A DNA stretch of 63,432 nt, filler included, from Asterionella formosa (lineage: Eukaryota): NCBI GenBank assembly GCA_002256025.1. It is 16 parts of 16 records of this genome, joined end to end, with 100 filler letters (N's around TTAATTAATTAA, not from the genome) between each part and the next. Parts side by side here need not be neighbours in the genome. Positions count along the whole stretch, not along the records: positions 1 to 31,657 come from NKIB01000613.1; positions 31,758 to 33,779 come from NKIB01000616.1; positions 33,880 to 35,901 come from NKIB01000617.1; positions 36,002 to 38,023 come from NKIB01000619.1; positions 38,124 to 40,144 come from NKIB01000620.1; positions 40,245 to 42,265 come from NKIB01000621.1; positions 42,366 to 44,385 come from NKIB01000622.1; positions 44,486 to 46,504 come from NKIB01000624.1; 8 more parts are not named here. One strand, given 5' to 3'. Numbering within the stretch: the first letter of the stretch is position 1; each line of letters opens with the position of its first letter. Position numbers and translations under genes: made by a program. Below the pieces are notes generated by a model, which saw only the letters and a list, made by a program, of their open reading frames with translations, ran no database searches and was not told where the DNA came from. Shown here piece by piece: positions 4,967-63,432 of this stretch.

Positions 4967-5655
4967 TTCTGTTTTCTGTGTTTTATGGAACACCAAAATG
5001 ACACGAACGGCCGCTTTGAGTCAGCGAGACACGCTTCTAAAAGGAAAGGTACGACCTGATATCTGATACCTGATGGGTCTCACTCGCTGCTCCAACAACC
5101 AAACACGTTGACGTTACTCTATTACCAAGGTAATGCTGTCGGACTGAATGGCAGATGCTGCCCAAGGTAGCTACGGGAGAGCGAGGATGTGAGAACAATT
5201 GATATATACCACGATGTTAACGGGAGACGACAGGGAAACGTACGATTCGCTATGTACTGTAGATGTGTGCGTCATACTGTGATCATGATGAGGCCTCAAT
5301 CGTATAATTATTCATAAATATTTTTATAACTCGCATTGTATTTCTTTTTAGCCTCTTGCAATTTCCTCATGTTTGTCTACAGCAGTAACTGGTACTACTC
5401 CGAATACTGGATACAGGACTGGCGAGTCACAATAAATAAGTATGGATGGGGGGGGGGTGCCACGCATGCACTAGCTATGTAGAACAATTGTAACCGGCAT
5501 GAATCTTTTCTTCCTCTGCTTCTTGCGTGGTCTTAGCAAAAGTTATAAAGGGCTTATACCATCTGTACATAAGCAAAATGCGGGTGGACACGGCGAATGT
5601 TAATACGTTGAGAGACAATACAACGGAGTACCTGGTACATGGTCCTCGTACCTGG

Positions 5656-5869
5656 TGAAGTATCTAACTAGAAGTGGTAGTATTTGTTATATATATGAGC
5701 TTATTTGTTAATCCTTGTGTGTAACTCGTTCTCTAAGTCGACACCAAAGTATACAATAAGGGTTAGTCGATCTCTCTCATTATTGAGTCTCATTATTGAG
5801 TTCTGATATACCGGTATATGATCTAACGCTAACCCTGTATATATCTGTATTGATGTGCAAGATCGCTCA
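5656..5869 (-). mobile_element. Solo LTR of a Ty3/Gypsy family with 5-bp TSD CCTGG
   Basis: TG...CA ends with CCTGG on both sides (5651-5655 and 5870-5874). Homologous to the LTRs at 31037-31233 and 45080-45280, which abut a PPT and integrase C-terminus. Confidence 0.85.
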
Positions 5870-6124
5870 CCTGGTACCTGGTACCTGAGGGTTATGTGGA
5901 CAGGGCCATTTGTGTACCGGTATATCTGTGTGACAGTATGTGGCCTGCCAATCAGTGCTGGGGGTCATTAATTTCAGGAGGATGTATACCCAGCGGATGA
6001 CTGTAATTCGGTCATCGATATTGTATATATGGGGAATACGAGATTTGTTTTCCTTGTTGGCATTGGAAGCACCAGGTACCAGGTAACCTGTTTATTGCAT
6101 ATGGTTCCCAATTCACCGCCCCTT

Positions 6125-6151
6125 TTTTAAGGTTCCTGCATTTGAACCCCT
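6125..6151 (+). repeat. Shared putative transposon terminus TTAA-GGTT(C/G)CTGCATTTGAACCCCTAG
   Basis: A near-identical 27-mer occurs in reverse orientation at about 51337-51364. TTAA followed by GG is compatible with a Kolobok-type end. Partner ends were not found. Confidence 0.4.
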
Positions 6152-9100
6152 AGCTCGAGGTAGGGTTAAAATAATAATAATAATGATAGTGAGTCAGACT
6201 ATTCAAACACCTACTTTTCACCTATAGAATAAAAATATGTGTAACACTCAACAGAGCTTTCACCATTAGACACCCTTTCCATATGCTTACATACATGCAG
6301 TCTTCGGACAAAGTAGGGGTGTAGGTCCACTCAATATGTTGTCAGGATATAGGATCTGGCGTGAAACTTCAGAAAGGACCTTCGGCTTTTTTACTATGCT
6401 AAAAAGACTAGAAAATTCGGGCGAAATCTGTTAATTTGTTTTAGTAAAAACAAAGTTACTTTCTGCAGTTTCTCGCCAGAAGATATATGCTGATGCTATT
6501 TGAAGGTTACCTATGTATGTATTGACATCGCCTTCAGACCCAGTCAACGTTGAGCTATGCATCATCATCCAAAAGTTCGACAAAATCGGCCTTTTTCTCC
6601 AGAATATCAGAATCACTAATCACCAAAACGTCATCATCGGAATGGTAGTCTTGTAAAAAAATTTTCAGTCGTAAAATCTGATGTGCAAAAAGTTCCATTG
6701 TAAGGGCCCGCTGCATTATGCATACTATTCTGATTGGTTATACTTACATCCATTCGATTGGTCTGATTTGCGAGGTCTTGCAATCCCATGCCCGCCGCAC
6801 TGGATACAAACAATTGCAACATTTTCTTGGGTGTTGGCCGATACAATATCCATGGGCTGACCTGGTATGGAGTAAGAGTATCTGGCACCCCTGGTACCGG
6901 TACCAGTAGCTGATCATCATTGGTCGTGGTAGTGTATGCAGACCATCAGTACATTTCAAGAATGCAATTTCATATATTTTCCAAGACACCGGGTCATACA
7001 TATGACACATATTTGTTGAACTGAGTATAATTCTGGTAGAGTAGCTATATTAACATTCAGCGATGGCGACTGTGCAAGTAAAGCAGACAGGGGAGACAAA
7101 TTACACCAACAAACCCTACACATTTATTCCGAAGTCTTCAATGACAAAGGCTGCCTACAGATAGGGGAGACATACTACACTGAAGACATTGAACAGACAT
7201 TTCGAAGCCTATGATGGAGAAGCCTGCCTTATTCTCTTGACATGGCAACAACATCATGCAGTCTTTGTCCCAGACAATACCATGTTACTAACTAATGCCG
7301 GAGGAAGGCATTGGATGTAACTGGGAAGAACTATGCACACTTGTCAGCTACCAAATGAATTGATAAGCGAATTCAACAATTCATTCAGAGATTCAGGCTG
7401 CAGCAGATCTGTGTTATAACTGGCTGTTACAATCATCTGTTGACCCTAATTCTGGTTAACACATTGAATTAAGGGGAGTAGCAGAGGAATATTGGAGCAT
7501 GCCACTGATATAATCATCATTCAATGGTGAACAGGAAGAGTAGTATGGTGATGACACGTATGAACAAAAAGGTACATATGTTGCATATGAGGAGGCCAAA
7601 CTTGAGTGAATGGATTTATGGGAGAATGTCTACTACTGCTACTGGCAGTATACCGGTAGTCATCTAGCCAACATCATATGTACGTGGTACCCGGTACTCG
7701 AAACAACAATGCATGGTTTAAGCTAAACTTTAATGCTTACTTTGAACACGTTATCATATTATCGCTGGAGACTCGGAAATGTTGAATTATATCGTTCACA
7801 TATTCATTGATTTTACGTACCACTGTATGCCCAATTTCGTCCTCACAATTATAATTCTCACTCTATCCTGCCTGCCGTTGCTCTTTTCAGGCTTGCAACA
7901 GGCAACATTTGTCTTTCTTTGATCCCATCATCTGCTGCATGTTCCACTTGTAAGAGCGGATCGGTGAGTACAACAGTGAAACACTGAATGTGGATTGTAG
8001 ATCCTATTTATTGAATTTCCAATTTGATTGCTTCCATGGTCTGTTTTGATCGCTTCCATCATTGTTTGTCGTTCCGAACTGTCATTTTGTTTCGATTGTA
8101 CATATCTACATAAGAACCAATGTATTTATCAATGACTACTCTTTGAAGATGTGGTATTGTGCTTTTGTTGATTTGTATAGTCGTTGAGTGACAATGCTGT
8201 CAATATTGCCGCCAAGCAATGCTTTTCTTGTACTAACGCGCTTTGCTACATTACTACTATGAGTTCTTATCAGAAGCTACGTATATTCAGCTAGAGGGAG
8301 TCGATGGTGCTGGAGCAGCCTGGCGAGTATTCTCAATCATAATGGATTGGATTGGAATGATGATCAGGGTTGTTTGGTGGGAGGAATGACTGTGGCGGAA
8401 AGACTGCTACTACTGGTGTCAGGCTAGTACAGCGATGTGCATGGTTGCAGCAACCAGATCATCTACACAACATAACGATACAGGTCTAAATTGGGTTCAG
8501 CTTTTTCCCTTCTTATTTCGGATTGTGTGGTGATGGACATTCAATTGCCTCTGTAAGTACTACAGTACAGTGTCACAATGCATATGCCTCCATTGAAACT
8601 CTCCATTTTACTTTATTTCTAACCCAAAACAATTTTTTCTGTTTTCTCATTTGATGCCACTTATTACATCGCATTTCATACTTTGGTTGCTCCAAGCATC
8701 ATGTTCAATTTTCATTTATGTTGCATGTCTCAATCATTCTCGTGTTTTTACGCTTGTTTTACCCTTTTTATGCATTTTACCGTTATTCTGGCTGTCATGC
8801 TAAACTCGGCAATTTTAATGCCGAAAAATTCGATGTGCCCCATATTGCCCCTAAATAAAAATAATTTAAGAAATTACTTAGAGCCTAAAAATTACTTAGA
8901 AGCACCCGAATGGCAAGACTATAGCTGGAGTGGGAATTGCCGCCATAAGTTTTGTCTCCCCATTGTACATCTGACACTCTGTATATATGACTATGAGCCC
9001 AAATATTTTGCAGAAAAATGGACATGTTATTTTTCTATTATAAGGTATAATAACTTTGTGTATCTTTGTGCTGGTCTAATTAAAAACAATACAACATGAT

Positions 9101-9220
9101 ATTACTGGAATGCATCCTATAATTTTGTTTGGTACCCTGGGAGTCTACTCAGGCAGCGTACCACCAGAAACAAACGTAATAAAAAAGTATATTCAAATTT
9201 TAAGTACCCAATAATAAATG

Positions 9221-9395
9221 AACTCAACAATTGTGGAGGTTGTGAAGTCTCATTGTGGCCCACTAAAGGGCCTTAGACCAGCTGGGGGCCTTACCACCTG
9301 GATCCCAAGGGACTACACAAACAAAGTGGGTGGAGAATGCCAAAACAATTAAACCCAACACCTTGGAAGGTGGGCTAACCACTAAGCCATTCCCC
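9221..9395 (-). mobile_element. tRNA(Ala)-derived SINE, copy 1
   Basis: The minus strand begins GGGGAATGGCTTAGTGG (A-box), has a degenerate B-box and closes with ATTCTCCA (acceptor stem with G3:U70). The roughly 110-bp body is shared with 17021-17199. Confidence 0.6.
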
Positions 9396-9592
9396 TCAGT
9401 ATAAACCTAATACATACCATCATCAAAAAGAAATCCAATTGTTATGGAGAAACCCTTGGCCTATGTGGTGTCACAAATGGAACAATCTGTGTGTGCAACA
9501 TAAATGCTGTGGAGCTCATAATAATACTTGGTTTTATTAGAAAACCAGCCATACTTTGGAATCATCATTGGCACAGCATGTGACAGTCACTG

Positions 9593-10273
9593 CTAGGGAT
9601 AAACATCTGGGCGAATCCAAGGTATCATGGCTAGTTGAAGTGCATGTTCATAGTAGTGTGATCTATCAATCAACCCATTTGTTAAAATTCCCACTGTTCC
9701 AGAGCCATGCTTCCCATTCACACGAGAAAATACTTGATCGTCTGCATCACCTAACTCAAGTCCTCCCCGTACAAGCTCACAAACTTTGGGAGGCAGGGAA
9801 AAAGCAGCCGTCTTGGCTAGACCCCAACTTTGTTTTGCTGAATTTTTGTTCATCATTGCAAATTCACCACAGTCCTTGGAGGCGGTCCAGTCCAAGATTG
9901 ACTTTGTTCGCTTTCCGTAGATGGCCATCCATGCCATACATACCAACCCGCCTTCTGCTGTCTCTTCCAACCCACCTTCTAATCCAATCGCCAATTGAGG
10001 CTCTTTTTGAAACAATTCAACAAACATTTCAAAACACGCCTTGGCTCGATTGCAAGCACCCAGTTTGGTCTCCGAATCACCCATGGGTTGGGCCGGAACT
10101 CCGGATGGAACAGAGAAGCCATGCAGTTCCAAAGTCGGAGCATGCACGTTGCTACTGTTGTCATTCGCTTGGTCAAGTATTGCCTTGAGCGCGCGTTGGA
10201 CTGACCGGATCTTGGATGGATTTGTTGATCCTACCGCTACATGAAAAATTGTCTCCTGCTCGGACGATGGCAT
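9593..10273 (-). CDS. yjjX: Non-canonical purine NTP phosphatase (inosine/xanthosine triphosphatase, YjjX/PRRC1 family)
   Basis: Motifs VAVGSTNPSKI, VPSGVPAQPMG..ET..GA.NRA, IGLEGG, ELGDADD, GTVGILTNG...RSHYYEHALQLA. First ATG at 10273. Confidence 0.9.
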   Translation of the reverse strand: MPSSEQETIFHVAVGSTNPSKIRSVQRALKAILDQANDNSSNVHAPTLELHGFSVPSGVPAQPMGDSETKLGACNRAKACFEMFVELFQKEPQLAIGLEGGLEETAEGGLVCMAWMAIYGKRTKSILDWTASKDCGEFAMMNKNSAKQSWGLAKTAAFSLPPKVCELVRGGLELGDADDQVFSRVNGKHGSGTVGILTNGLIDRSHYYEHALQLAMIPWIRPDVYP

Positions 10274-10708
10274 AATCAGGACGAACGAATGCACCGGGTA
10301 GGTAGATATTTGCTTACTAATATGTATGATCGAATTGGCCGGTACTATACTATCGAGTGTTTACCTTCTTCCTTTTTGTAATTGTTGGTGTGAACACAAA
10401 GCGAGACTGAAGCAAAAGTTTGAGTCGCTCGTCGTCAGCATTCCTGAGGATTGCTTTGTTGTTTTCTGAGCATCGTTCCTGCTTATTAGTGGAGCATACC
10501 AGGTACCAGGTACCGTAGTCCATTGGGTCGAAAGATATTTACTAGATCCAATCTGATATACAGGATTTATATTAATGCCTGAATATTTTTTATGTAATAT
10601 TTTATGATAAAAAGCTGAGCGATCTTTCCTCGTGCTCATCTTGGATGTTCGGATGACACCTTTTGTGTTCTGAATGGTATCTTCAACAAGAAATAGCCTT
10701 TGACCACG

Positions 10709-11530
10709 ATGACAGTACCTGCTACCGCTATTGCGTTTGTGGTTCGTTCACATGCACAAGGAGGTGTTGCCCTTCCATCCGTTGCTAGCAAGCTCTTGCC
10801 AGTAGTGATGGCACAACAATCATCCAGCACCTCGCTCATGATGGCGAATGCGCAAGTCGTCAAAGATTGTACTGGAGCGGCGCTAGGTTTCTTTGGAGGG
10901 ATCCGGACCCCGGCGTCCCTGCTTGCGGGTTCTTCCTTGGCTATCATGTTTACTTTGGTTCAAAAAGCTGATAGAATAAATGAAAAGCTCAGTCGTCTGG
11001 AGCGCATCGTCTTTGTGTTATATCACATTTTGGCACTAATGGCCTTCGTTCTGGCCATGTCAGTGATTGTCATCACGACAGCTGCATCTACTACACTGTT
11101 GATGGGAGGATCGTTTAATGCAGAAGGAATCAGCGCTCATGTCTTCTTAACACGTGAAATGAACTTTGACTTTGTGGTGTCCAGATGGTCGTTCATGGTT
11201 AGCAATCTAACCTTTCTTGGCGCTGTGCTCGGAAGAACCCTGTTGGAGTTTGATCTCTTGAAGAAAGATCGCCGTACTGGAGGAATGCTTGTAATATGTA
11301 GCATTGGTGGCCTCATGGCACACTTGATCAGCTACGTAAACACTTCGCCCGGTTCGTCGTCGAGCATCGTTCATACGACTGGAGAAGTATTTCGGCTACT
11401 CCTCAATCGTGCAATATCAGGTACAACTGTCCGTCCCATGGGCACCATTGCACTCTTCGCTTCGGCCGGAACTATACTACTCATGTGCAAGTCCCTTTAC
11501 AAGAACATAGGAAATCAATTTGGGGAGTAA
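10709..11530 (+). CDS. Hypothetical multi-pass membrane protein
   Basis: About 273-aa ORF with several long hydrophobic segments (e.g. FFGGIRTPASLLAGSSL, SRWSFMVSNLTFLG); no family recognised. Confidence 0.7.
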   Translation: MTVPATAIAFVVRSHAQGGVALPSVASKLLPVVMAQQSSSTSLMMANAQVVKDCTGAALGFFGGIRTPASLLAGSSLAIMFTLVQKADRINEKLSRLERIVFVLYHILALMAFVLAMSVIVITTAASTTLLMGGSFNAEGISAHVFLTREMNFDFVVSRWSFMVSNLTFLGAVLGRTLLEFDLLKKDRRTGGMLVICSIGGLMAHLISYVNTSPGSSSSIVHTTGEVFRLLLNRAISGTTVRPMGTIALFASAGTILLMCKSLYKNIGNQFGE

Positions 11531-11619
11531 ATCGAAACGAATGCGCCAAATGGTTGTAGAACTTGACGTATGTACTATGCATCCATGGTGATTTAGAAAA
11601 CTTGTTGCTTATATGTTCC

Positions 11620-13080
11620 TTATGTTCCAAAATTTTTCAGTTGGACATGGTTCACAAACCGAGCCAACTCTGTAGATAGCCATGTTGTAGATGGCGAGAC
11701 TTCATCGAGCCCCTCGACCTGATGGAAGGCGAACCCCAAGTGGCCGCCGTGGCATGTACGATGAAAATTGATCGGGGCCTTACCACCAAATGTTTGTGTC
11801 TTTTCAAGAGGGAAGACCTGTGGATCTAGAATAGGATCATCTGCTGACCGAACGACATATGTTGGGACTGCAATACGTTCCAGGTAGTGGATGGAGGAAG
11901 CCTTTCTTCTATACTCTTGCGTACTCGCAAATCCGTACACATGCTTGACAAACGCCTCGTCAAATTCAAGGATTGTTCTTGCGGCCATGACTCCGGCATA
12001 GTCAAAAAGAGGGGTATCCTCGTTCCCATCGCAGAGCAAGTGTAGTTGATCTTGAATTTTGCCACGGAAACTATTTAGCAAGATCTTACAATATACCATC
12101 TGATTGAAACCAGGTTTGTCCAAATATTCAATATCCCGCTCTTGGTCCAAAGGTGGGGATGCAATTGCCGCACCTTGGATATTGTACCGGTCCACAGCGG
12201 ATTCGCCAAGCTCACCTAGAGCCTTCAACACAACATTTCCACCCAATGAAAACCCAGAAAGATATAGAGGAGGCAGAGCCGTGTGTCGTCTCCGATGTAG
12301 CTTTAGAAAGTATTTCAAATCATCTGTGAAACCAGCATGATATCCACCCAGCTTGCCAGCAGGTACACCGGAGCAACCCCGAAAATTCAAGCATACGACG
12401 TTCATGTCTTGCTCCGTGTAAGCTTGCGCAATATCCTTGGTTAGTGGCGATTCCGAATTGGCTTCGAGACCATGCAGTAAAATAACAAGACCCCTGGGGT
12501 TCGGCACAAACTTGTAGTCAGCATGAAAAAAATCTCCATCAGGAGTGTCAACTCGTTCACGAATATCCCAATACTTTGTGGAATGATTCCGGGATACAAT
12601 GACGTTAACAAGCTTTCCAGCCAATGCTTTCAAACCTGGTCTCCAGTCGTTGTTATGAATGTACTTGAGCTCGGGCATGTCTCTAGTGAACATACCTCCA
12701 ATGGTTTGCACATGTTTATTTGATAGCCAAGGCACTGGTGAAAAGTGATTGGGGATGAATGAGGAGGCAATGGGTGCCGCTTGAGATTGGCAAGCTTCTA
12801 GTCGCGGCACAAGCGCGTCACCATTAATCAGTTGTCTTTCTTCCGAGAATGTTCGTGATCGTTGACGGGGTAACCTATACAGTCGGTCTCGTCGAGGTCT
12901 GTTGAATTTTTTTTGAGAATCTGATGGGGTATCTTCAGGGACACTTACACTACTTTGATGCAAGGCCGATGATGATCTGGTGCGCCAAAACGGTCGAAGA
13001 GAGCGTTGGGGTGCATTTGAGGGTAACAGCGCCCTTGCGGCTTGGCAAAATGCCAGTAGAAGGAGAAGCCATTTGATCAT
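11620..13080 (-). CDS. YheT/ABHD1-3-like alpha/beta hydrolase, probably plastid-targeted
   Basis: Motifs HVQTI, ILLHGLE, NFRGCSG, YHAGFTDD, GFSLGGN (Ser), ADDP (Asp) and HGGHLG (His). Signal peptide MIKWLLLLLAFCQAARA is followed by a Ser/Arg-rich transit-like stretch. Confidence 0.9.
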   Translation of the reverse strand: MIKWLLLLLAFCQAARALLPSNAPQRSLRPFWRTRSSSALHQSSVSVPEDTPSDSQKKFNRPRRDRLYRLPRQRSRTFSEERQLINGDALVPRLEACQSQAAPIASSFIPNHFSPVPWLSNKHVQTIGGMFTRDMPELKYIHNNDWRPGLKALAGKLVNVIVSRNHSTKYWDIRERVDTPDGDFFHADYKFVPNPRGLVILLHGLEANSESPLTKDIAQAYTEQDMNVVCLNFRGCSGVPAGKLGGYHAGFTDDLKYFLKLHRRRHTALPPLYLSGFSLGGNVVLKALGELGESAVDRYNIQGAAIASPPLDQERDIEYLDKPGFNQMVYCKILLNSFRGKIQDQLHLLCDGNEDTPLFDYAGVMAARTILEFDEAFVKHVYGFASTQEYRRKASSIHYLERIAVPTYVVRSADDPILDPQVFPLEKTQTFGGKAPINFHRTCHGGHLGFAFHQVEGLDEVSPSTTWLSTELARFVNHVQLKNFGT

Positions 13081-14746
13081 TCCAATTCGCTTGTTGGTTA
13101 CATGCAACCCCGTTCAATGAACGTGACAAGAGAACGTATTAAAGGAATGTCCAACAAGAAAGAGTTTTTGAACGAGAAAGCAGCGAAAAAAGGATCGTCT
13201 TTACTGCTCAATCGAGATAGCATTAATTACAATATATATATTATTCAAAAATATAAATTCGAAAACAATATGTGCCGATCGGAATGCAATTGCTTCGATT
13301 TTTATCGGAGGTGGACCATCATAATGGCTGAACTGCACGTTTCACGCGTTTTGTGAAGCAACGGTTAATCCTACTACCGGTGTACGCACATAGCTAGCAG
13401 ACTTACTGCGAAACAAAACAGCCGATACTTCTTCAGTCGGCTCGGTCACCTCGTTGAGAACTGACGGTCCTGCCGTCTGAGTTTCCCGCGTCAAATCATA
13501 CCATTCTGGAATAACTTTGACATACTCTCCTACCGGCACTGCCTATACTTTATGTATGAATAGAACTACCAGGTCAGCGATACGAGTACCAGTACATGTT
13601 GCTTTGATATACCGGTATGCCGGTGTACTACGGTATACGGTAAAGTGGTTATATGTCTTCTTGTGATAAAATTTAACAAAAACATATTTTTATCACAGCT
13701 GTATTCAAATAATTCTGGAATTATTTGTACAGTACCAGGTACCTGGTACCTGGTGGTACCTTGAATATCCTGTAAACAGAAGTGGCTAAGGTTAAAAGCT
13801 GAGTATCAGTATTTTAGGGAGAGCAGCAAAAGTGTGGTACTTCCGGGCTAGCCACAGTGGAGGTGTGGTGCATTACTATGTTCTGACTTGTCTGTATTTT
13901 GGTGTTCCAGTTTAATGAAAACACAAAAGTACTCCCCATTCCAGTCATCATAATTGTTGGGATGATTATCCTGGGCAGGTGAAGTATTTCAAAAAGCTGG
14001 GCTGTGACTCTGAATGCAAGGAAGTGCCATGCAGGCACCACTACTACCCCTTGAGCCGTTTTGAGGCACTTTATAAATGAGGTACTACAGTATATTATGA
14101 AAACACAAAAGTAAGAAGCTGGCTGTTTCAGTAGGGATTCTGCCTATATACTCTGATTGTAGACTGGTTTGCATTGAGAAGTTGCACATTGTAACCCAGC
14201 AAGTTATGGTAATTTTGTTGAAACTAAAGATTTAGCACTCTTTATCCTAGATTAAAATATTAGTTGGAGCAAAATTACTGCAACTTGCAGATATCTGTAC
14301 TCTTGTTAAGCTGGCTATTTAGACCTGGTATAGGCATAATTGTGCCACACTGGTAGACTACCAGAAGCCTGTTATTGATAGATATAAACTTATTATTATA
14401 GGTCTAGAGCCAACTCCAAGTAACTCAGCAATAGTGCGGTCGAGGCCAAGGAATACCTAAAGAATGCATGAATTCGTCCATCACATGGACCATGGTATGG
14501 CAAAATATCCATCATTGGGTGAGAACAAGTACTGTGAGAATAGAAATTAAGAATATAAGGTCCTGGTTTCTCCGTGCTATGTTTCCTTGGCTGTTGTTGA
14601 TGTGGTTAACACATTGCGAAGAAGCCATGATTTACTTGAAGGTGTATATAAGTTGAAATGAACTTATTTGTATTTGAATCGCCTGTCTGCTGTGAGAATA
14701 AAAGCAAATCACAATGACCTCCATCAAAGCTAGCGCATACAAGCAT

Positions 14747-15577
14747 TTATCTGTTGTCCTGTATCCATTCATGTACTACACAGCGGGCCTCCAGCTTCAA
14801 GGTTTGCCCCAGGGGTTTTGCTTCCTCGCTTGCTCGTTTGAGCCGACGTTCAACCTTTTTCAAAAGCCCCTTCAAGGTGCTTTTCTTGAGTTGATTATTT
14901 TTGTATTCCATGTGCACAGACCATGCCTTGTTCAAGGCACTTGGGGATTGTTCACGATTCAACAGACCTGCTGTTTCCAGGTAAATCTTGCCAAGTTGTC
15001 CCTTACCATTCTCCACATAGTAAATTCCCAGCTTGCGCATGGCACTTGCAACAGCTTGTAGGGTTTCATTTATGATTCGCTTTTGCAAACATTCAGACTT
15101 TACCAGGACCTTTCTAGATTCATTGAATTCGCCATTATTGAACAAAATCTCCCCCAACTGATAGAGTGCTGCTGAAATCGCAATTTTTTCTGAATGAGCG
15201 ACTGTTGTTGACATTTGCATGAGACGGGCTGACACAGCTTCAAGGTATTTGGTGGAGCTGCTGCTTGTAGCAACGGCTTGAGGTACGGGTTCCAAACGGT
15301 CCAATGACATTTCTCCAGTTGATGTTTCTGATGGAGACACCGGCATCCCAAGTAAAGGCGTCGTCAGGTCGTCGTTGTCTTGATAGACACATAGGGAGCT
15401 GAATACCTGGTTTTCTTCCAGCATGGTGAACATTCTGTTGGCGTAGTGGTCTCGAATCGTCATAAAGTAGCTAATAAACAATGGTGCAACCAAAATGAGG
15501 CCAGCCATTGTTTGGCGGGATATACCGCCTTCGAAATGCGGAACCATGGACCCCATAGTTGATATGTTGGCACCCAT
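14747..15577 (-). CDS. Hypothetical protein with one TM segment and TPR-like helices
   Basis: Likely start MGANIS at 15577; hydrophobic AGLILVAPLFISYF; TPR-like AALYQLGEILFNNGEFNES and AMRKLGIYYVENGK. Confidence 0.6.
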   Translation of the reverse strand: MGANISTMGSMVPHFEGGISRQTMAGLILVAPLFISYFMTIRDHYANRMFTMLEENQVFSSLCVYQDNDDLTTPLLGMPVSPSETSTGEMSLDRLEPVPQAVATSSSSTKYLEAVSARLMQMSTTVAHSEKIAISAALYQLGEILFNNGEFNESRKVLVKSECLQKRIINETLQAVASAMRKLGIYYVENGKGQLGKIYLETAGLLNREQSPSALNKAWSVHMEYKNNQLKKSTLKGLLKKVERRLKRASEEAKPLGQTLKLEARCVVHEWIQDNR

Positions 15578-16700: not shown

Positions 16701-17020
16701 CTGGACCATGTTGAGATGTCGCAGTTGCATGCGTGATCATAATGGGACACGACATTTCAAAATTGTCAAAAAGGAGAGAAGTTGCTGATGACTTGTCCAA
16801 AGGGTAGCTATATTATCGCTCATTTTACTTTTGAACCACCGGTATTCTTTCTGCTGGCTTGAAAGAACAAAAAAGGCAATGCCCAGATGCTATTAGATGT
16901 TTTGTCCAGGGCTGTATGTTATTGCTCAAACTGGATAAAATTACATATTATACTGTAGCAATTAAGTGATGTATAATAATAAAATTATTAAGTAAATTTT
17001 ATAGTATGCTATTGTTAAAG

Positions 17021-17199
17021 AACTTGACAATTGTGGAGGTTGAGAAGTTGCACTTGACCCCTAGGAGGGCCTTAGACCTGCTTGTTGTCTGCCACACCAC
17101 CCAGAAACCAAGGGATAATATAAACAAAGCAGGTGGAGAATGCCGAAATCGAATCTGCTAGTACCTCAGAAGGTGAGCTAACGACCTAAGCTATTCCCC
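17021..17199 (-). mobile_element. tRNA(Ala)-derived SINE, copy 2
   Basis: Head GGGGAATAGCTTAGG...GATTCGATTTCGGCATTCTCCA; body homologous to 9221-9395 (GGTCTAAGGCCC...CAACCTCCACAATTGT). Confidence 0.6.
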
Positions 17200-19794
17200 A
17201 ATGTAAACTAATAATAAAATATATAAAGCTAAAATCAAATCAGCAATCATCAATCAATATTGTTGCTGTATCTCTGAGTCATTCCAGTTTTCATTATATA
17301 CACAACTGCAATGTATTTCTCATTGGTCATGTCACATGATCCTGTTTTTGCTGTTCCTGTTGTGTTCTTTGCAATTGTTCTTGCTATCCCTCATGTTGTT
17401 GCAGTTCCTGTAATTGTACCTGCTGTCCTTGTCCCTGTTTCCTTCAATGTAGTGGTTGTTCCAGATTGCACATTGGCACTCATTGTCTCTGTTGTCTCCT
17501 TGTCTTCAGTCATTGTTCCAGCTTGCGCAGTCCAGTTTCAGAAGTTGCTGGCCTTTGGTATTCCTCCTTTTATGCATTCTTTGTTCCACCTTTTTTATTC
17601 ACACTCATTGCTTCTCTCGTTCTACATGCACCACCACTGCAGACAGTGGCTTTGCCTTCATTAGATGAACATGAAAAACTATATGAGAATACACTGAACA
17701 CATACTCACTATCACTACTGTCTTTTTGTGATTCTTCAAAATCTTCACGCAGAATAAGAGGAGCTTTTACAGTGTAAGTACAAGATGAATGCTGTGAGCA
17801 AATCAATAGATTTGGTTGTTGTATTCACTTCTACTGAAGATTCGCTACAATTAGCTGTGTCATAGCTGCATGTAGCTGCAAGTATGTATTTGGCTGCTTT
17901 CACTTACTCATTCTCCTATCTAAATAAATCCAATGTATTGATCATAGAGAAAAGAGTTATTGAATGGAAAAAGCTTTCATGGATAAATCAGGTGACCTGC
18001 AGTAGAAATATTTACTGGTATATATAATGCATATGAGCTAAACAAATTTATTTTAAAACACATTCAACCTTCCCCATACTGTAGTCAAATATTGCAATAA
18101 ACCGAGTTGTATTAGCCTGATTTTTCTATAGGTGAAACTTTTTTTGAGATTTCACCGAAAATATAGTTCAGCCTTTCAACAAACTTCTATAGTACTTTAT
18201 GTTACTCCATGCTTATTTTGGAAAATTTGGCATTTAGAAAACCACTAGGAATGCTTAATCAAGCAACTGATCGACAGTGGTGGTGCTATTGGTACTACCG
18301 TAACAGTCGTGGTGACCTCCTAATAACAGGTTTAATGATAAGAACAGACTAGCAATTGAATGGATGATTACAGGCAAATCATAATATTTCTTGGGGCAAT
18401 TTGTCAATCTGATGGATCTGTAGAACGTTTGCTAAGTGATTTGCATGCAATGGCATTCTAAATAATGATTAATCATGATCAATCCACCTTAGAATCGTAT
18501 TTTCCATAGAATATCTCGTTTAGTAGTTCTTCCCTTCCCTGGCAGTCCCCTAGTACTATCTGTTGATTGCTGTGTTGCTTGACACCTTCGTCAATTGGTT
18601 CCTTGTCTTTCTTCTTGGCTGTGTCGGACTTGAAGGATATTTTGGTTTCCATTGCGAAGGTTATCTATCAAATCAATCCATTTCCTCATATCATCATTAT
18701 CGCTGCTTCCACAAGGAAGAAAAATTGAACTTCACTTATATCAAGCGCTTTGATACTACTACTTCTCATTTTCTAGAAGGATAGACCATGTAGCGCTTTC
18801 TGACGTTGCCAGCCCTGATATTCATGTACTTATTTACCAACCCAGCAGGATCATCCCAACAAATGTGGTGACTTTTGGTGCTGGTGCACAGGGATTCCAC
18901 AAGAAATAATAGGAATGAAAAGGAATAACTGAGTGCGATTCTGGTGGACAAAGATGTATTACTATATCCTGTCTGCTGCTTGTTACTTACAGGGCTATGA
19001 GAAGGTTTCTACATTGTTTGTCACATAAGGGACAATGTCCACAATTCCCTTGCTTAGTTTCAAGCGGCTACCTGAACACTATCACAATCAACCTGGGCGA
19101 TGCTGCAAGGCAAGACACCAGTCAAGCAATCAAGGCAAATGGAGGACAAGGATGAGAATACCAGAGATGTGTGTGATGATTTAATATGTATGGTTCACTG
19201 TACTAGCTTTACCATGTTGTGATCAGAGGGAGAAAAAAGTCAACATATAAGGAGCAGTGATGAATCTCCGAAATTATGAAATCACCACGATGTGCGATTT
19301 TCGACTTCTTCATCTCTTGGCAAATCTTGGCAGCATTCCAGACTTGTGCTTTATCAGAAGAGGTGAAGAAGTTGAAAATTGAAATGACAGCAATTGACCT
19401 TCACTTTGCATCACTTCATTGGCATCATGAAACAGCATTTATTTAGCTAAGAAACACAAAACTACCTTGAATTCTTTTAACATTGATTTTCTATTGCCCT
19501 TGTCGTCTACAAAAGTTTGAAGCACTAAAGGTTGCATGTGAGATTTGACAAGCTCATATCATTTTACCATCAGCCAGCTGAAGAAAACCATTCAGCTGAA
19601 ATGACGTCATTGATCGCGTCATTGCTATCATCCTCATTTGAACGAAAAAGATATTATTCTCCTTTTGTACATGCCAAATACTGGTTTTTCTATTGGTTCT
19701 CCTGTGTCACTTACTACTTCTGACGAAGCCGTCATCGCTCCTTGGACTGATACCGATGCTCTTCCTACTCATCACGAGAGGGGCATTAAGCTGT

Positions 19795-20994
19795 ATGCTC
19801 CTTCTTCATGTTATAAGCGTGCTGTGCATCCTCACAGCAGCATTTGTTGTTGTTCCCGTCCGCCTCCCAGTCGACACGGCGTCGTCCTCGTCACTCCATC
19901 ACTCTAACTCTCAGCATGATACGTTTGTGGTATCACTGGATGGCGCATTGGCCAATACGGTAGAATGGAGGATACGGCATGGAATCCAAGCCGCGGCAAG
20001 AACGTGGCCGCAGCAGTTGCATTGCATTGTATCTTCCTCCTCAAACGACGCTGTTGATGCTGTGTTGGACAACAACGAGTGGTTGTCCAACAAGATGAAG
20101 GCGCTGAGTCATGTGATGATGGAACGACCCGGACTTAGTTTGACATGCGACTTCGCTCTGTTGGCTCGGATGTTAGTGGAAGAACAAGAATTGGACCGAG
20201 GGAGGTCGGTGGGGCTCAATGGAAAGTATGCCTCCAAGTTTCATCCGTCGACACACCTGTCGTCATCCACTAGTACGACGTCGTATGCGTCCACCGAATC
20301 ACAACGACGAACAAACGATGGGAGTACCGGTAGCCGGCCTCTCACAGTGGGAGAAATATCTGCTAATTGGTCGGAGGGGGCATTATTGAGTGACACAGTA
20401 ATGGTGAAATACAATGTTGAGGGGAAAAACCCACTGCCTATTCTTCAATCTGCCGTTGAAGACTTATTGTTAGAAGACGAAAAAAAGAGTGTGCTGCCCT
20501 TTGTATGGAACGACGGTGTCTGCGCTGCCTTGTCGCAATCCCTTGGCCGCGTCATTGTGACAGTCAGTCATGAATCGGAAATACCGATGCTACAACGTTT
20601 GTTGCATCAGACCCCACTCGGTGCATCGTTCTTATTGCTGGACAGCGATGAGTCCAAATCTCAGCAGCGTCTTTCAACAACAACGTACTCGAAGACCATT
20701 GTACATCAATCAGTCATGGACGCGCCCAAGGACTCGACAGTTCATGTCATTCATAGTTCTTGGAAAACCTTGCTTCAAGCAAAGCCGTGCTTTGGTGACA
20801 ACATTCCACGTCATGGGAAAAGAGCGGCAATAGCGGCGATTGGAGATGGTTCCGTGCAACTTTCTCTTAATTTACCGCAATGGGCGGAGAATACACATTG
20901 GTGTCAACACAATGATGCTGAAATGGACCCATGGACAAATTTAATATCAGAAAATGACTTTACTGAGCTTGTTTCAGATAGCATTTGGTCCTAA
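19795..20994 (+). CDS. Plastid-targeted HAD-like protein (degenerate motif I)
   Basis: Signal peptide MLLLHVISVLCILTAA-F; motif I-like VVSLDGALANT, in which the first Asp is replaced by Ser; long intact ORF. Confidence 0.65.
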   Translation: MLLLHVISVLCILTAAFVVVPVRLPVDTASSSSLHHSNSQHDTFVVSLDGALANTVEWRIRHGIQAAARTWPQQLHCIVSSSSNDAVDAVLDNNEWLSNKMKALSHVMMERPGLSLTCDFALLARMLVEEQELDRGRSVGLNGKYASKFHPSTHLSSSTSTTSYASTESQRRTNDGSTGSRPLTVGEISANWSEGALLSDTVMVKYNVEGKNPLPILQSAVEDLLLEDEKKSVLPFVWNDGVCAALSQSLGRVIVTVSHESEIPMLQRLLHQTPLGASFLLLDSDESKSQQRLSTTTYSKTIVHQSVMDAPKDSTVHVIHSSWKTLLQAKPCFGDNIPRHGKRAAIAAIGDGSVQLSLNLPQWAENTHWCQHNDAEMDPWTNLISENDFTELVSDSIWS

Positions 20995-26639: not shown

Positions 26640-26921
26640 TGACCTGTGCTTCCCTAGTTTTGTTAGCATAGGTGAGTCTCCAACCACCAATGATGAAAGG
26701 TGATTGTCTTAGCCACAGTCTGAGGGGAAACTCCAATAGTCTAGGAATGCAGCACAAGCTGCTTGTAGGGGGAGGGAGGAGCAACCCACTATTTTTTGCA
26801 CACCTGGTAAGGCTGTGTTGGAGTCAAACCCAACAATTGCTTCTCAAAACATAATTGCAGGAATTGAACCACACAACTTTAGATCAAAGGCAACATGCTC
26901 AACAATGCTAAGCCATTCCCT
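26640..26921 (-). mobile_element. Possible second tRNA-derived SINE family
   Basis: The minus strand starts AGGGAATGGCTTAGC (A-box) and has GGTTCAATTCC (B-box). The body is unrelated to the other SINEs and the 3' boundary is uncertain. Confidence 0.35.
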
Positions 26922-50740: not shown

Positions 50741-53589
50741 NNNNNNNNNNNNNNNNNNNNNNNNNNNNNNNNNNNNNNNNNNNNTTAATTAATTAANNNN
50801 NNNNNNNNNNNNNNNNNNNNNNNNNNNNNNNNNNNNNNNNATTCACGACGGGTACCAGTAGATGATCATCATTGGACATACCGGTACGCGTACCGCTCCT
50901 TGGGTGCACTTTCAAATATTTGCCGAGCCGCCGGGTCGTATACATGACCCATATTCGTCGATAGGAGTATACATTGTAGTACTGGTGTATGCACATGAAG
51001 CGATGTAGAACCTAAATATATATATATATTTATATATGTGTATATTAAACGATTTGAATATCTCGAACGGATTCAATGCATAGCATATAAAATCGTTAAT
51101 CGGAGTATAGAATGTCCATGAATACATGTTGATCGTATTTTTAGCATATATATACATACAGCGACTAAGAGTGTCAATATATATATTTAGCGATTTTGAC
51201 AAGGAATCTATGTACGTATTCGCAAATTTCCACTGATTCAAATATTTCAAATGGAATCACGTCATTCAAAAATAGCTAATTAAATTCTTAATTCCAGGGA
51301 ATTTTCGCAACCCTAAGCAATATTTTAATTTTTGCCTAGGGGTTCAAATGCAGCAACCTTAAAAAATAAAACACTTCTTTTATAGTGTACTGGTACAGAG
51401 GTGTCAGTACAACAGGTACATAAATTAGTATTTAACATACCGGTAGATTAATGACCCCGAGGGTCATTTTAGCTTACCCGGTATTCTGCTAAGCAAAATT
51501 CCGGAAATGGATTGAGAATTTTTCCCTTTCCACTCGTACCGACAAAATGTTGATACAAAAGCCTCCCAGACAAAAAGGAAAGTGAGAAAGTAACCTTGCT
51601 TACTGGTACCATGTTTCTGTCTCACGATCAACCCGCTATCATGAATGCATCTGTGTCGTTTTCGTACCCGATACCGGTAGTTGGAATACGGTTGCGTCTA
51701 CTACATTACCCCCGAACCTGGTACGTTCAGTTACAGCGCAGTCTGGGCGGTATATGCTAGTATAAATAGCCGGTACAAATACATTCATTGTAAACACAGT
51801 ACACAGCTACCTGGTACGGCTGTATTGTTGTTACATCGGGGTACATACATGTTGTACATAACGGCATACCTAATACAACATAGGACTAACTTCCAGTCTA
51901 TATATCAAGATTTGGGGAACCTCTTGTCTATCAAAATGTTTGATGCAGTTTTTGGGTTCATGGTAAGAACAGAAACTCTGAGGAGCTGGTTATGAAAGGA
52001 GAACATTTACAAATGGATTTCAATTCTTGCCAAGTCCACAACCCCAGAATGTATGCATAATGAAAATTGTTCCTTTGAGGAAGCAATATTTGTTTGTCAT
52101 GCATACTAGTAAAACAAGGAGACAAGATTTGATCAAATCAAAACATTTGAAAAAGTATTTGTTAATAGTGCAACAACTGGAAAGAAGTGGAAGCCAGAAG
52201 CAACTTGTATTCCAAAATACAAATTAAATACAAATAATTTTCTCCACAATTGGCAGCTTTGTCACAAGCAAAGAAAAACAACTATGCATTATGGAACATT
52301 GGATCCGCTAATTGATGTATTCCACATGCTACAAAGGGACCTGCTCTAGGGTCCACCCTTGGACATCCAATCAAATATCTTGATCTTGTCACCAACATGA
52401 CCTACTCTAGATTTGAGCGTCGTCATGCTGCTTCATTTGAAGTAGCTAGTGATTGTTTCACTGTGACATTGGTTTGGTCAACAGAACTACTCTGAAGATT
52501 TTCATAAGTTATTAAAAGATCCTGGAAGTATTCGTACATGGACTAGAAGAGTTATTTTAAGGGCTCAGTTTTCGGAGCATGTAAATATAATTTCACAAAA
52601 GGTTCCTGTTAAATGGTGGGCTGATATTGCCCAGAGTCAGTCATTACCATTGAGCTCCAAGTGGATAATGTTTTCAACATGGATGAGACTTTCATTCTTG
52701 TCTACCCTGGTTAAGACAAGGTACTTTTACTAGTTCTGATCAAGGCAGATATTATGTGGCTTGATGTCACAATGAAACAGACCGATCTTGGCCTCTGTAC
52801 CAGTATGAAGATGATGGATGGCATCAATAATCTCAGACATGATTTTAACTCGGATCTNNNNNNNNNNNNNNNNNNNNNNNNNNNNNNNNNNNNNNNNNNN
52901 NTTAATTAATTAANNNNNNNNNNNNNNNNNNNNNNNNNNNNNNNNNNNNNNNNNNNNGCAGTACTGGAGCGCGCTAGAGTGGCGCCATATATTTCAACAT
53001 ATATATCCGTCCAGGTTTTCGTGTTTCTCCCTACCAGTACGTAGCATCCTGTCACTGATGTGCACAGTCCATTATACCGTTCTACCGGTACCGTCATCAT
53101 CTGCTTCACTGGTATGTTTTCCAAGTTTAAAAAAAATGATTCCAGGTGGAAGCACATGAGGGAACGGAATCTTGGTTTCAGAATGCGAAGCAAAGCGTTT
53201 GGACCTGCACCTGCCCGCCTAAGGACGTATGCCCGACTCGATCTGCAGGATATTCTGGTACCGGTACTGTAACACTCGTGGTATGTATGTACTGTACCGG
53301 TACCAGGTACTACCGGTATCTACATCCCGATAGTCTGACAATGTTGACACATACGTACTTAGAAATAACTACACGTTTTAAGGTAATCAAGCTAACAACA
53401 TACTTTCGGAAGTAAATTCTAGATATTGTGAGTTAGATTAATCTGTACTATATTGACTTTGGGAGTCAAAGAGTAATCAAAACTGATGGCAGTTGACACA
53501 TTGGAACAAGTGTGGATATAATAAAATATATACCAGTAACTGCAGCAAAAGAACAATGGAAGCCAATGATGTGTGATGTCATAAAAGTT

Positions 53590-53841: not shown

Positions 53842-54970
53842 AATAAAAACTATCATATTTCCATAATTCATCATAGGATTGTGATCATCTGATCATAATT
53901 TTTCGTTATATCATCTAATAATTTTGATAAATGCCTTTGTAATTTAAATAGTACCGGTAACCCTTTTGACTACATATATTTAATAATTATATGTATTGTT
54001 TCTATTTGATTCCTGTATTCGAATTTCTTGGTAGGATAATGTACCAGTTCAAGTAATGTAATTTTGCTCGTCATTTCCATCCGTCATCACTCCGATTTTT
54101 GCAACAACAACGAAATACTAGCGATGACAAGCGGAATGAATGTTTGCGATAACGTGCGTCTTCAATTTTTTGGTCAAGTGATCTTTTTATCTTCGAGTAA
54201 TTGTCATGTGCAGTGAACCTTTGTTCATAATCATTCAATTAAGAGTTTACAGGAGAGAAGAAACCATTCGAAATCATAATGTTTCCGCACACAGCGCACA
54301 AAGTATATCTGTTTCGTCCACTTGAGCATGACAATTTCGCCAATCAACCCGAAAAGAAAAACATTCTACTTGTTCTCATTGACATTTTCAATTCTCACAT
54401 GATACTACATCTACCATTGAGATTCAGCATAGAAGGAGATACGAAAATGTGCGTAACAGACTACTGTCCACATAGCTATAGTTATAGAATGATTCTGATT
54501 AGAATGCATTTCATTTTCATATCGCTCACTCGTTTCTGCATTTGGTATACTGTACTTGAATTAACTATTGAACTTGTCCGCATCTTTGATACCATCAAGA
54601 GAGCGAAAGCAAGTGGCTCTTTTCATTGTTGTTTGCTCGTAGGAAGAATTTGATATCTGTATCGTCATTTGCTTGTTGGAATGGTCCGTTGCCTCAAACT
54701 TGCTTGGCGTGTGCGTTCACACACTGTCGACTTGTTTTCAATGGTATGATGTTCTTGTATTCACTGTTGAACTTGTCCGCATCTTTGATACCATCAATAG
54801 AGCGACAAGTGGGTCTCTTCATTGTTGTTTGCTCCTGGAAAAGTCGGTGTCCGTGTCCGTGTCCGTGTCATCCTCATCAATAGAGAGACAAGTTCTTTCG
54901 TTGGAAAAATTGGTACCATATCATCATTTGCTCGTTCGAACCACTGTCCGATGCCTAAAACCTGATAAGC
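53842..54970. repeat. Dispersed repeat of about 1.1 kb, copy 1, with internal sub-repeats
   Basis: Colinear with 57421-58560; internal TTGAACTTGTCCGCATCTTTGATACCATCAA duplication. Confidence 0.85.
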
Positions 54971-61419: not shown

Positions 61420-61973
61420 TGCCTGGCAACAAAAGGCATAACGAAATGGTTGAACACGAGCAACAAAAGGAGAAGTACGACATGAAACAGCAAACCAGTG
61501 ACGATGAACACAATGCTCGTTTTGAAGAGCTCCAGGCCATGAAGCGAATCGAACACGATCAACGTGAAAAATCAATTCCTAGATTTTCTAGAATGTTGCC
61601 GAAGGGACCTCCTGTGAGCAAACCAGCGTCTGTGGACGACGAGAAGGATGAATCGTCCTTGTCATTGAACTCGTCGCTTGCTTCAATGGAGGAAAGCTTC
61701 CGTGGACTTGAAAGAGCCACCCAGAAATCTTTTCGCCGAAGCGCCCAAGATGTTCAAGATACCGAAGAATTAGAGGCAGACGATAAAGTTGGAAGTGATG
61801 TAACCCCCAAAGTTGACCTGGACTCCCTTCAAGCAAGTGCCGCTCCTCCGGCGTTCCGTCGAAAACCATTAGTTGCACAGAAAAATGGACCTGGAGACTC
61901 GCCCAAAGGTCCAAGCAGGTCCATGTCTGCGATGCCAAGTCTTGGTGAAAATTCGGGTCCTTTTCAGAATTAA
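61420..61973 (+). CDS. 3' part of a hypothetical low-complexity protein
   Basis: 175-aa open frame extending to the contig start; charged and Ser-rich; no domain recognised. Confidence 0.5.
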
Positions 61974-62598
61974 CGAATGGTGCGAATGCCTAGATGATCA
62001 GGATTTATGGATTTTTGATTACCTGTTGCTGAAGGTAGATTAATGTCATGTCCGAGGATAACGTAACGCATCTATTTTGTCCAATGAAACCAGCATACGA
62101 TATACCATCGAGACTACAAGTCGCTAATTTCAATGCCCAAACAATTGAATAGTAACATAGACCCTACGTCAAGTTCAAGACCATTAGTTATGAAGGTTCG
62201 CCAAGCCACCACGAGAAATCGTGCTGGCGTTGTACCAGGTACCATATCTAAGTTCCTACCGGTGTGTCGTTTTAAAGGACAACGTATGGGAAGCAAGAAA
62301 TCGTCGTAGAAGATCAAGGGGAGAAATGTATTTAATTTAGCTCGAAGGAACCGTTACTTTAAGTGCTCCTGTGTGGTGGACGTATTCCGTCTTGCTACAT
62401 GTAGACCGACCTGATCGTCATCTAATAAGCATCCTACTTCATTGAGTTAGCATTTCCATGAGTTTTACAATTTCCGCGCAATGATTTAGAAAACAATAGG
62501 GACCTGCACAATAATCGAACACTCAGTACCAATACAGAAATCCAGACTAAAAGTTCCGCAAATCGATGCCGCGATAATTGTATTTGCCTTTCGCATTT

Positions 62599-62979
62599 TC
62601 ATTCCCAGTCTAGGTCCCCCGTGTCCTTTTCCCTGACAACGACATGAAGTGGTTTTGCCCGTTGAATCCCGAGAAAGGCCATGACGTCAAGTTGTTTTGA
62701 GTGAGGTAAGAGCTTCAACTCCGCTGGAATTTCGCATTCGTCACAATCTTCTCCACACGTCTCCCCCGTAGACAAGTCCCAGGATGGCGCCTCATCGTCA
62801 ACTCGAAATATTGAGAAATCCATGGGATTTTGCACAAATACACGTTCTAACTTTCGTCGATGTGAATCAAGTTCACTGTCGCTTTTCATTTTCAGTGATA
62901 TAGCACCTAGTCTCAGTTTCGTCTCACACACCCATGAAGCTGTTAGTGAAGGGAGTAGGAGAAGAAGCCCTTTCGTCAT
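62599..62979 (-). CDS. Small hypothetical plastid-targeted protein with a CxxxCxxC motif
   Basis: MTKGLLLLLPSLTAS-W signal peptide; ETCGEDCDECEIP; LDVMAFLGIQRAKPL. Confidence 0.6.
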   Translation of the reverse strand: MTKGLLLLLPSLTASWVCETKLRLGAISLKMKSDSELDSHRRKLERVFVQNPMDFSIFRVDDEAPSWDLSTGETCGEDCDECEIPAELKLLPHSKQLDVMAFLGIQRAKPLHVVVREKDTGDLDWE

Positions 62980-63432
62980 TGTGCCGGCACATATATTTCT
63001 TTGACTAGATAATATTATTGTTTTCGTTTTTTCTATTTTCTGCCTGTAGATTGTGCAGCTTCGGCGCATTTGCATGATGAACAAGATGATGAGGCGGAAC
63101 CCCGGATATACTCCAAGCAAGGAACACCAACAACGCTACAAGATGTACATACTAGATGTCCTGAAAATTACTCTACCTGTACCAGGTACCGTCGCTACTT
63201 GCTATATACCGGTATATTGATTTCCCGGTACCCTGGTACCAGTACCTTTGGCTGGGTTGAAGCGTCAGTCCGTTTTGCTTCGTACCAGGCACCAGATACC
63301 AGGTACCAGGGTACAGTATGAGCGCTGGCTGATCAGGAGCCTCAGCCAGCAGGCAGAGGTGTCAAAATTGATTCATCGCTCATGCGAGATGGGTCATACC
63401 GGTTGACCAATTAATAGTGACACCTACCGGTA

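Follow-up and report, generated by a model that had tools for sequence, protein, structure and literature searches.

Iterated TA-bounded palindromes in the intergenic DNA of Asterionella formosa arise by insertion at TA and may be transposon excision footprints

The DNA between the genes of the diatom Asterionella formosa contains many copies of short TA-bounded palindromes, foremost TACCGGTA and TACCWGGTA (W being A or T, that is, TACCAGGTA and TACCTGGTA), and we examined their distribution and origin in a stretch of 63,432 nt from assembly GCA_002256025.1. This whole stretch, which we call the window, consists of one 31.6-kb piece and 15 small contigs; from position 31658 on, the pieces are ~2.0 kb long and follow one another in descending size. 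The pieces are separated by 15 artificial linkers of the form N44-TTAATTAATTAA-N44 (31658-61419), and an apparent enrichment of TTAATTAA is an artefact of these linkers. The genes of the window are long open reading frames (ORFs), mostly without interruption. One of them (9596-10360) is predicted to encode an inosine/xanthosine triphosphatase-like protein with named relatives in pennate diatoms at ~50% identity and a 100% match on one contig. The small pieces include retroelement fragments with RVT_1 and Exo_endo_phos ORFs. A 673-aa ORF at 38125-40143 was considered as a transposase and rejected, having no relative of solved structure and having diatom zf-CCHC and Copia-type gag/pol clusters as its Atlas neighbors, which points to a retroelement.

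The region 5600-15500 was found in at least 20 runs from 15 studies among the matches listed, labeled mostly as freshwater or lake-water metagenomes. Contigs from four runs in four studies reproduced motif-bearing window DNA almost letter for letter; an X2 contig spanned 8890-11002 with two differing letters and no gaps, and a second contig spanned 13720-15879 with six differing letters and no gaps. Thus, the motif-bearing DNA is not an assembly artefact of a single data set. A scan of metagenome contigs with TACCWGGTACCWGGTA returned at least 132 stretches, which gave 128 loci (634 kb) from mixed organisms; among the 128 loci listed, only three resemble the window. About 25 long loci with a GC content of 0.43-0.46 and long uninterrupted ORFs make up what we call set B (311 kb, of which 192 kb is ORF and 119 kb other DNA). 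The ORFs of set B contain DUF6824, DUF6818, and HSF domains and encode ordinary eukaryotic enzymes. We take DUF6824 and DUF6818 to be typical of diatoms and read set B as derived from one other diatom or from a few. A scan of viral contigs yielded 10 single matches, none of them informative.

On the plus strand of the window there are 34 copies of TACCGGTA, 10 of TACCAGGTA, 7 of TACCTGGTA, 10 of TACCAGTA, and 8 of TACTGGTA, 69 motifs in all. In 100 dinucleotide-preserving shuffles TACCGGTA occurred 0.43 times on average (maximum 4) and TACCWGGTA, of which 17 were observed, likewise 0.43 times (maximum 2); no shuffle attained the observed count of either. TACCGGTA outnumbers every other 8-mer of the window; an order-3 Markov background predicts 2.0 copies. 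The motifs are also unevenly placed. Taking as non-ORF everything outside stop-to-stop ORFs of at least 150 aa, we found 63 of the 69 motifs outside ORFs, at 2.05 per kb versus 0.19 per kb inside, whereas TA dinucleotides (2459 versus 1290) are only ~2-fold denser outside. Of the six exceptions, two are in copies of one LINE (long interspersed nuclear element)-like repeat, two are in a 178-aa ORF of doubtful status, one stands right where an ORF begins, and one lies in-frame at 20325. Small contigs that are retroelement ORFs contain none. Neighboring motifs lie close together, with 14 gaps of 100 bp or less compared to 6.2 on average when non-ORF TA sites are drawn at random; in 2000 simulations only the largest value just attained 14. 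Of the 47 arrays, 43 are single units, and TA-anchored chains of two or more units cover 1.1% of the non-ORF DNA of the window compared to 0.1% in shuffles. A first-pass annotation made from the window alone had described spacers saturated with these words, their rarity in exons, and their stacking at listed positions, and our counts bear out all three. It had also called the pattern window-wide, which for this non-contiguous window refers to the 31.6-kb piece and the 15 small contigs; no motif lies before 5629.

All of the listed stacks are real; like the other motif sites below, they are given without strand. ACCTGGTACCTGGTACCTG (5869-5887) lies at the truncated end of a copy of a long terminal repeat (LTR)-like sequence. 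ACCAGGTACCAGGTA (6071-6085) is its inverted partner, in that 5869-5882 and 6071-6084 form a perfect inverted pair of 14 nt (100% complementary), 188 nt apart. At TACCAGGTACCAGGTACCG (10497-10515), 35 X2 contigs and 18 X6 contigs terminate within the stack and have unlike flanks, indicating that the same stack is present at many other X2 and X6 loci. A and T centers are mixed in both TACCAGGTACCTGGTACCTGGTGGTACC (13733-13760) and TACCTGGTACCAGGTACCAG (26407-26425). The chain TACCGGTACCAGGTACTACCGGTA (53295-53318) belongs to the longest TA-anchored chain in the non-ORF DNA of the window, which is 29 nt long including the preceding TACTG. A cluster at 63180-63313 holds six motifs and half-motifs within 134 bases.

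Comparison of repeat copies showed that the CCGG+TA and CCWGG+TA motifs arise by insertion at a pre-existing TA. An alignment of every pair of repeats in the window yielded 100 indels. Four of these were 6 nt long; three were exactly +CCGGTA at TA (5809, 45237, and 53952) and the fourth was a GTGTCC tandem unit. There was also one 3-nt indel consisting of +CTA at TA, and two 13-nt tandem duplications that pass a formal TA-X-TA test were left uncounted. Two of the +CCGGTA insertions are in the LTR-like repeat, for which we aligned three window copies with a fourth from locus L108, which is from a related organism. The TACCGGTA at 5809-5816 is private to its copy, the copies at ~31200 and ~45150 and the L108 copy having plain TA, and the TACCGGTA at 45237-45244 is private to another, which reads ctcataTACCGGTAttcaac compared to ctcataTAttcaac in the three remaining copies (31037 among them). 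Every TACCGG in this four-copy alignment is private to one copy, from which it follows that the motif-free state is ancestral and that the motifs are insertions, not ancestral sequences since deleted elsewhere. The TACCGGTA at 53952-53959 is found in one of two repeat copies that are 85% identical, where aatagTACCGGTAacc faces aatagTAacc at ~57535. The same holds for TACCWGGTA. A +CCTGGTA at TA distinguishes the two tandem units at 26134-26240, with TACCTGGTA at 26206-26214 in the second unit and TA within GTAC (26162) in the first (attcagTActggcag versus attcagTACCTGGTActgggg); this pair was recognized by eye, having been missed by the indel script. In set B, contigs L048 and L071 are 99.9% identical, with 3 mismatches in 7,790 aligned bases, and their sole indel, a strain-level one, is +GACTA at TA, giving TAGACTA. 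Thus, in these window indels, the tandem unit, and the set-B contigs, an insert with a duplicated TA faces an empty site with a single TA, as is the case for footprints of the Tc1/mariner type. The four comparisons proposed in the first-pass annotation (53952/57535, 45237/31037, 5809/45080, and 26206/26162) are all confirmed.

The two remaining words, TACCAGTA and TACTGGTA, had been proposed as separate footprints of the forms CCA+G and C+TGG. Variants of TACCGGTA with a single substitution fall into 12 classes in the window, and of these the present pair, which represents CpG transition, is the most enriched (18 copies, 12.6-fold the order-1 expectation), followed by other transitions (2.9- to 7.3-fold) and transversions (0.9- to 4.4-fold). 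The in-ORF TACCGGTA at 20325-20332, an in-frame 6-nt unit within a 450-aa ORF, is polymorphic at base 20328, which is C in X1 and T in X2, X6, and X7, the latter giving TACTGGTA. Non-ORF DNA of the window has a CpG observed/expected ratio of 0.70 and a TpG/CpA excess of 1.25. For the window species, the variant spectrum and the polymorphism make TACCAGTA and TACTGGTA better read as decayed TACCGGTA than as footprints of their own. The CpG-decay argument fails in set B because TACTGGTA and TACCAGTA together number 112 in non-ORF DNA versus 21 for TACCGGTA; there they may be shortened W-type scars.

In set B the W-type prevails. We counted 143 copies of TACCAGGTA and 130 of TACCTGGTA, with ~3 expected of each, so that TACCWGGTA occurs 273 times versus 6 expected, and only 23 copies of TACCGGTA. 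Being reverse complements, TACCAGGTA and TACCTGGTA have a 1:1 ratio that is uninformative. None of the 273 W-type motifs is within the 192 kb of ORFs, all being in the 119 kb of other DNA, and 2 of the 23 CCGG-type motifs are inside ORFs. The central letters of neighboring units are AA in 15 cases, TT in 15, AT in 15, and TA in 14, that is, 30 same and 29 mixed. These equal orders (2:1:1 for same:AT:TA) are those of independent events, whereas slippage would give neighbors of the same type only and the fusion of two inverted ends a single mixed order, and a random, independent central letter is what footprints would show.

The signal is broader than CC(W)GG, since several TA-bounded self-pairing cores are enriched in both sets. 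When all TA-X-TA words were ranked, the self-pairing cores GC, CG, GWC, CSG, CWG, CCGG, and CCWGG were at the top in both the window and set B, and every enriched core can pair with itself, either fully or with a mismatch at the center alone. Observed and expected counts in set B were 286 and 69 for TAGCTA, 103 and 19 for TAGTCTA, 86 and 18 for TAGACTA, 63 and 17 for TACGGTA, and 107 and 36 for TACTGTA. Among the 16 possible outer dinucleotides, TA has the highest mean observed/expected ratio for palindromes of 6, 7, and 9 letters (the odd ones with a free center) in both sets; for 8 letters TA is the best in set B, and TT is first in the window owing to the linker. The enrichment is not general to TA-palindromes, as others are nearly absent from set-B non-ORF DNA (TAGATCTA, TAGGCCTA, TACATGTA, TAGCGCTA, TATCGATA, and TAAGCTTA once each, TACGCGTA twice). 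The flanks of the motifs in set B are periodic (TA-S-[motif]-S-TA, S being C or G), indicating that the motifs sit in chains of TAs parted by short cores with C/G edges, and chains of two or more units make up 7.9% of set-B non-ORF DNA compared to 0.6% in shuffles. We considered a narrower target for the W-type, namely GTAC with an inserted CWG, which fits six of the seven isolated window copies and the empty site at 26162. It fits set B poorly, where G and C are present on both sides in only 47 of 160 isolated copies; the common target is TA.

Two other sets of words were seen. TACTCGAGTA occurs 17 times in set-B non-ORF DNA and ACTCGAGT 21 times versus 4 expected; CTCGAG is possibly a sixth core of the same kind. 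The CCCTAGGTGAGA repeat was set aside as part of a 21-bp tandem satellite, CCCTAGGTGAGAACCATGTTG, in L044 and L064 (for example L064:5517-6200).

We consider it probable, at roughly 0.55, that the motifs are excision footprints of cut-and-paste transposons of the IS630/Tc1/mariner type, which target TA. Insertion of such an element would duplicate the TA, and excision would leave terminal letters of the element as overhangs on both flanks. Where the element has inverted-repeat ends the two overhangs would be identical and, if self-complementary, could pair with each other; the self-pairing of identical overhangs would in our inference account for uniform products. Overhangs of CCGG would pair perfectly to give TACCGGTA. 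Overhangs of CCAGG would be mismatched only where their central A letters meet, and resolution of this mismatch to either A or T would give TACCWGGTA, much as CAG ends yield TACWGTA in Sleeping Beauty. The ends would accordingly be CCGG with a 4-letter stagger for TACCGGTA and CCAGG with a 5-letter stagger for TACCWGGTA. Each footprint would add a TA, and re-insertion nearby would build chains. Selection would purge footprints from coding DNA, and with time the CpG of TACCGGTA would decay to TACTGGTA or TACCAGTA. The first-pass annotation had instead supposed elements with CCA...TGG ends. That supposition fits less well, as the full join that it predicts, TACCATGGTA, is absent from the window and occurs 8 times in set B compared to 273 TACCWGGTA.

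These features can be compared with several known systems. Mariner elements of the Mos1 type also target TA, and the Mos1 inverted repeat starts with CCAGGT, which would suit a TA|CCAGG junction. Mariner excision leaves TA, three letters, and TA; words of this type are unremarkable here, TACCATA and TATGGTA numbering 7 and 2 in the window and 36 and 31 in set B. In cyanobacteria, the highly iterated octameric palindrome HIP1 is common within genes, and its origin is untied to TA or to insertions. The likeness to HIP1 drawn in the first-pass annotation is purely descriptive: one 8-letter palindrome is far above expectation here too, but the motifs are scarce in coding DNA, with 63 of 69 window copies outside ORFs and 6 inside (in set B, ORFs contain none of the 273 W-type motifs and 2 of the 23 of the CCGG type), and new copies are 6- to 7-nt insertions at TA. 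The excision of internal eliminated sequences in Paramecium shares with the present case a TA-centered cut made by an enzyme derived from a transposase, and a connection to ends of the Tc1/mariner kind. It differs in being precise and developmentally programmed, with a single TA left behind and no letters added, whereas letters and a second TA remain here. These TA-bounded sequences are excised by a domesticated piggyBac transposase (PMC3464196).

The closest likeness is to Sleeping Beauty and Tc1. As described in PMC6943129, the cut that Tc1/mariner transposases make in the non-transferred strand lies a few letters within the element and produces 3' overhangs; after end joining, 2-4 letters from the start or the end of the element stay between the TAs, and Sleeping Beauty footprints are TACAGTA or TACTGTA. 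The resemblance on this account (PMC6943129) lies in the TA on both sides, the few end letters between, the random A/T center, and the fixed small net insertion, and TACWGTA, the Sleeping Beauty-type word, is ~3-fold enriched in set B. The present motifs differ in that their dominant cores have 4 and 5 letters (CCGG and CCWGG), not 3, that they are dense enough to form the top 8-mer, and that their source element was not found in the window or the 634 kb of loci. In a literature search of limited reach, the motif words were met only incidentally in primers and barcodes, and at the level of abstracts no paper describing an excision-footprint signature in diatoms was found.

Several observations weigh against footprints as the explanation. 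No element with inverted repeats of the form TA|CC(W)GG...CC(W)GG|TA was found in the window or the 634 kb of loci at several stringencies, and the 69 window ORFs and 163 set-B ORFs searched, which are small and repeat-poor samples, yielded no transposase of the Tc1/mariner type. The absence of element and transposase is weak evidence, metagenome assemblies and 2-kb contigs being poor in repeats, but the link to transposons is one that we infer. Among the 12 indels listed, of 40, between strains of the window species, none is at a motif. The W-type core has 5 letters and the possible core CTCGAG has 6, exceeding the 2-4 stated for the superfamily, which GC, CWG, GWC, CSG, and CCGG fit (PMC6943129). 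Set B was retrieved by means of the motif itself, so that it has at least two motifs per locus by construction and is biased to motif-rich regions, and it may mix more than one species. Over all 128 loci, from mixed organisms, same-type neighbors outnumber mixed ones by 126 to 78 and there are runs of 5-6 identical units, so that some arrays do expand secondarily by slippage. Finally, in L077, L078, and L112, which are from another organism (GC 0.55), an array of 7-mers belongs to a repeat, being built into its inverted ends, and is not a scar. On balance, the proposal of transposon footprints retains the insertion at TA, the avoidance of ORFs, the clustering, and the Sleeping Beauty-like form in its favor, and lacks an element and a Tc1/mariner transposase.

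The element scans, which included generic TA-flanked inverted repeats, returned only motif stacks, known retroelement repeats, an unrelated TA-flanked element at 36344-37090, and a mini inverted repeat at 21640-21679. The latter is 40 bp long and flanked by TA (TA-CCGGTGGCAC...GGGGCACCGG-TA), 8 of its 10 terminal bases match, and it is single copy by depth; it is the sole candidate relic of a CCGG-ended element and could be due to chance. The element at 36344-37090 (747 bp) has 23-nt inverted ends (AAAACTGTAAGCCACCG...) that match no enriched core; related copies are present at 51869-52115. The only DNA transposase seen in set B is of the piggyBac type, encoded by a 1006-aa ORF (L047:16014-19031; DDE_Tnp_1_7, E 3.5e-38). 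About 1 kb from it there is a 126-bp foldback (L047:14990-15115) with perfect arms of 51 nt and a further copy of the arm. Having TACTAGTA at both ends, this foldback was examined as an element and rejected, because the inverted repeat reaches further out and TACTAGTA is internal. Likewise, the repeat start TAGACCTGG in L050 and L055 is not an element end, as homology runs through that point, and a mariner-like end at 26809 (CCAGGTGTGC...) has no partner end and adjoins a repeat resembling a short interspersed nuclear element (SINE).

This SINE-like repeat is dispersed in the window in copies of ~260 bp that are 72% alike (9177-9439, 16974-17240, and ~26740-26930) and have GGTGGAGAATGCC and CTAAGCCATTCCC in common. 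Other repeats at 5600-6933 and 7601-8934 have a summed X1 contig depth ~400-1300 times that of neighboring single-copy bins, indicating a very high copy number. The LTR-like repeat (TGGTGAAGTATCTAAC...GTAACTGTACCA; 5649, 31030, 45293 on the minus strand, and L108:186) is preceded by ACC in all four of its copies, so that their starts read (T/A)ACC[T/A]GGT and are footprint-like. Either the true start of this repeat lies further out or it was inserted next to footprint-like sequence. Several run contigs differ from the window by 7-13 letters in length, from which we draw no conclusion.

A first alternative is that TA-specific break and repair, for instance by a domesticated transposase or nuclease that cuts TA, writes the palindromes with no resident element. 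This would agree with the failure to find a source element or a Tc1/mariner transposase in the window, loci, and ORF sets, with the long piggyBac-like ORF in set B, and with very uniform products such as the 34 identical 8-mers. The constant letters of CCGG and CCWGG would, however, need a template, and the flanks, differing from site to site, do not supply one; several distinct cores occur together, as several element families would produce. We also know of no TA-specific process apart from transposition that writes palindromes, and we regard this alternative as unlikely.

The stacks could instead be relics or termini of a miniature inverted-repeat family with ends made of GGTACCW 7-mers, single motifs being the last remnants. 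The 14-nt inverted pair at 5869 and 6071 is what such termini would look like, and the repeat of ~115-140 bp in L077, L078, and L112 has inverted ends with three GGTACCA units, which read GAGGTACCAGGTACCAGGTACCAGGTCGATTT and its near-complement, and adjoins TTTAGGGG-like repeats. That repeat comes from the other organism and has no TA flank at its CC end. Ends of this kind predict A...A followed by T...T, but AT and TA orders are equal (15 versus 14 in set B, 40 versus 38 overall), and the sequences adjoining 390 TACC(W)GG ends outside stacks have nothing in common beyond known retroelement repeats. Nor is such a family needed to explain the isolated 6-nt inserts that stand at TA within repeat copies, and we hold it to be quite improbable.

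Equally improbable in our view is slippage of a micro- or minisatellite of TAC/GTA and GGTACCW, in which the palindromes would be a unit mixed with its own reverse complement. Homogeneous arrays of 5-6 units do exist in L015, L029, and L082, (TAC)n runs in set B reach 124 nt, and the same-type excess over all loci points the same way. Against this, neighbors in set B are independent, most window arrays (43 of 47) consist of one unit, new copies appear at plain TA where there is no earlier unit to slip on, and the enrichment of self-pairing cores alone is left unexplained. That the palindromes are sites of a dimeric DNA-binding protein of promoters or chromatin, selected in spacers, is very unlikely: they are palindromic, spacer-restricted, and clustered and have the free central W typical of such sites, but insertions arise inside decaying repeat copies, CpG transitions and other decay occur at neutral-looking ratios, the dominant core differs between the two diatom sets, and stack spacing is set by the shared TA.

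Excision footprints of TA-targeting transposons, by comparison, would account for the insertions at TA, and they lead to a more tentative proposal. Two diatom lineages or more might owe a measurable share of their intergenic DNA (~8% of set-B and ~1% of window-species non-ORF DNA) to repeated hit-and-run of such transposons, some of them cutting 4-5 letters inside their ends, with self-pairing overhangs ligated almost error-free; the scars would preserve a legible history of the transposon families of the past and would steadily provide new palindromic sites in promoters. Excision footprints are usually seen as rare by-products that are hard to spot, and here they would be the top over-represented spacer words of a eukaryote. 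They would then provide a direct count of past cut-and-paste activity where the elements have vanished or are unassembled, and would partly explain how diatom intergenic DNA is composed and how it has grown. The transposase indicated would be one whose cleavage stagger is unusual, since a cut 4-5 letters inside the ends is not known for the superfamily. Work on k-mers and motif discovery in diatoms would otherwise mistake footprint words for regulatory elements. At the same time, this process would be a mutational supply of palindromic sites for promoters, and some scars may have been co-opted as binding sites.

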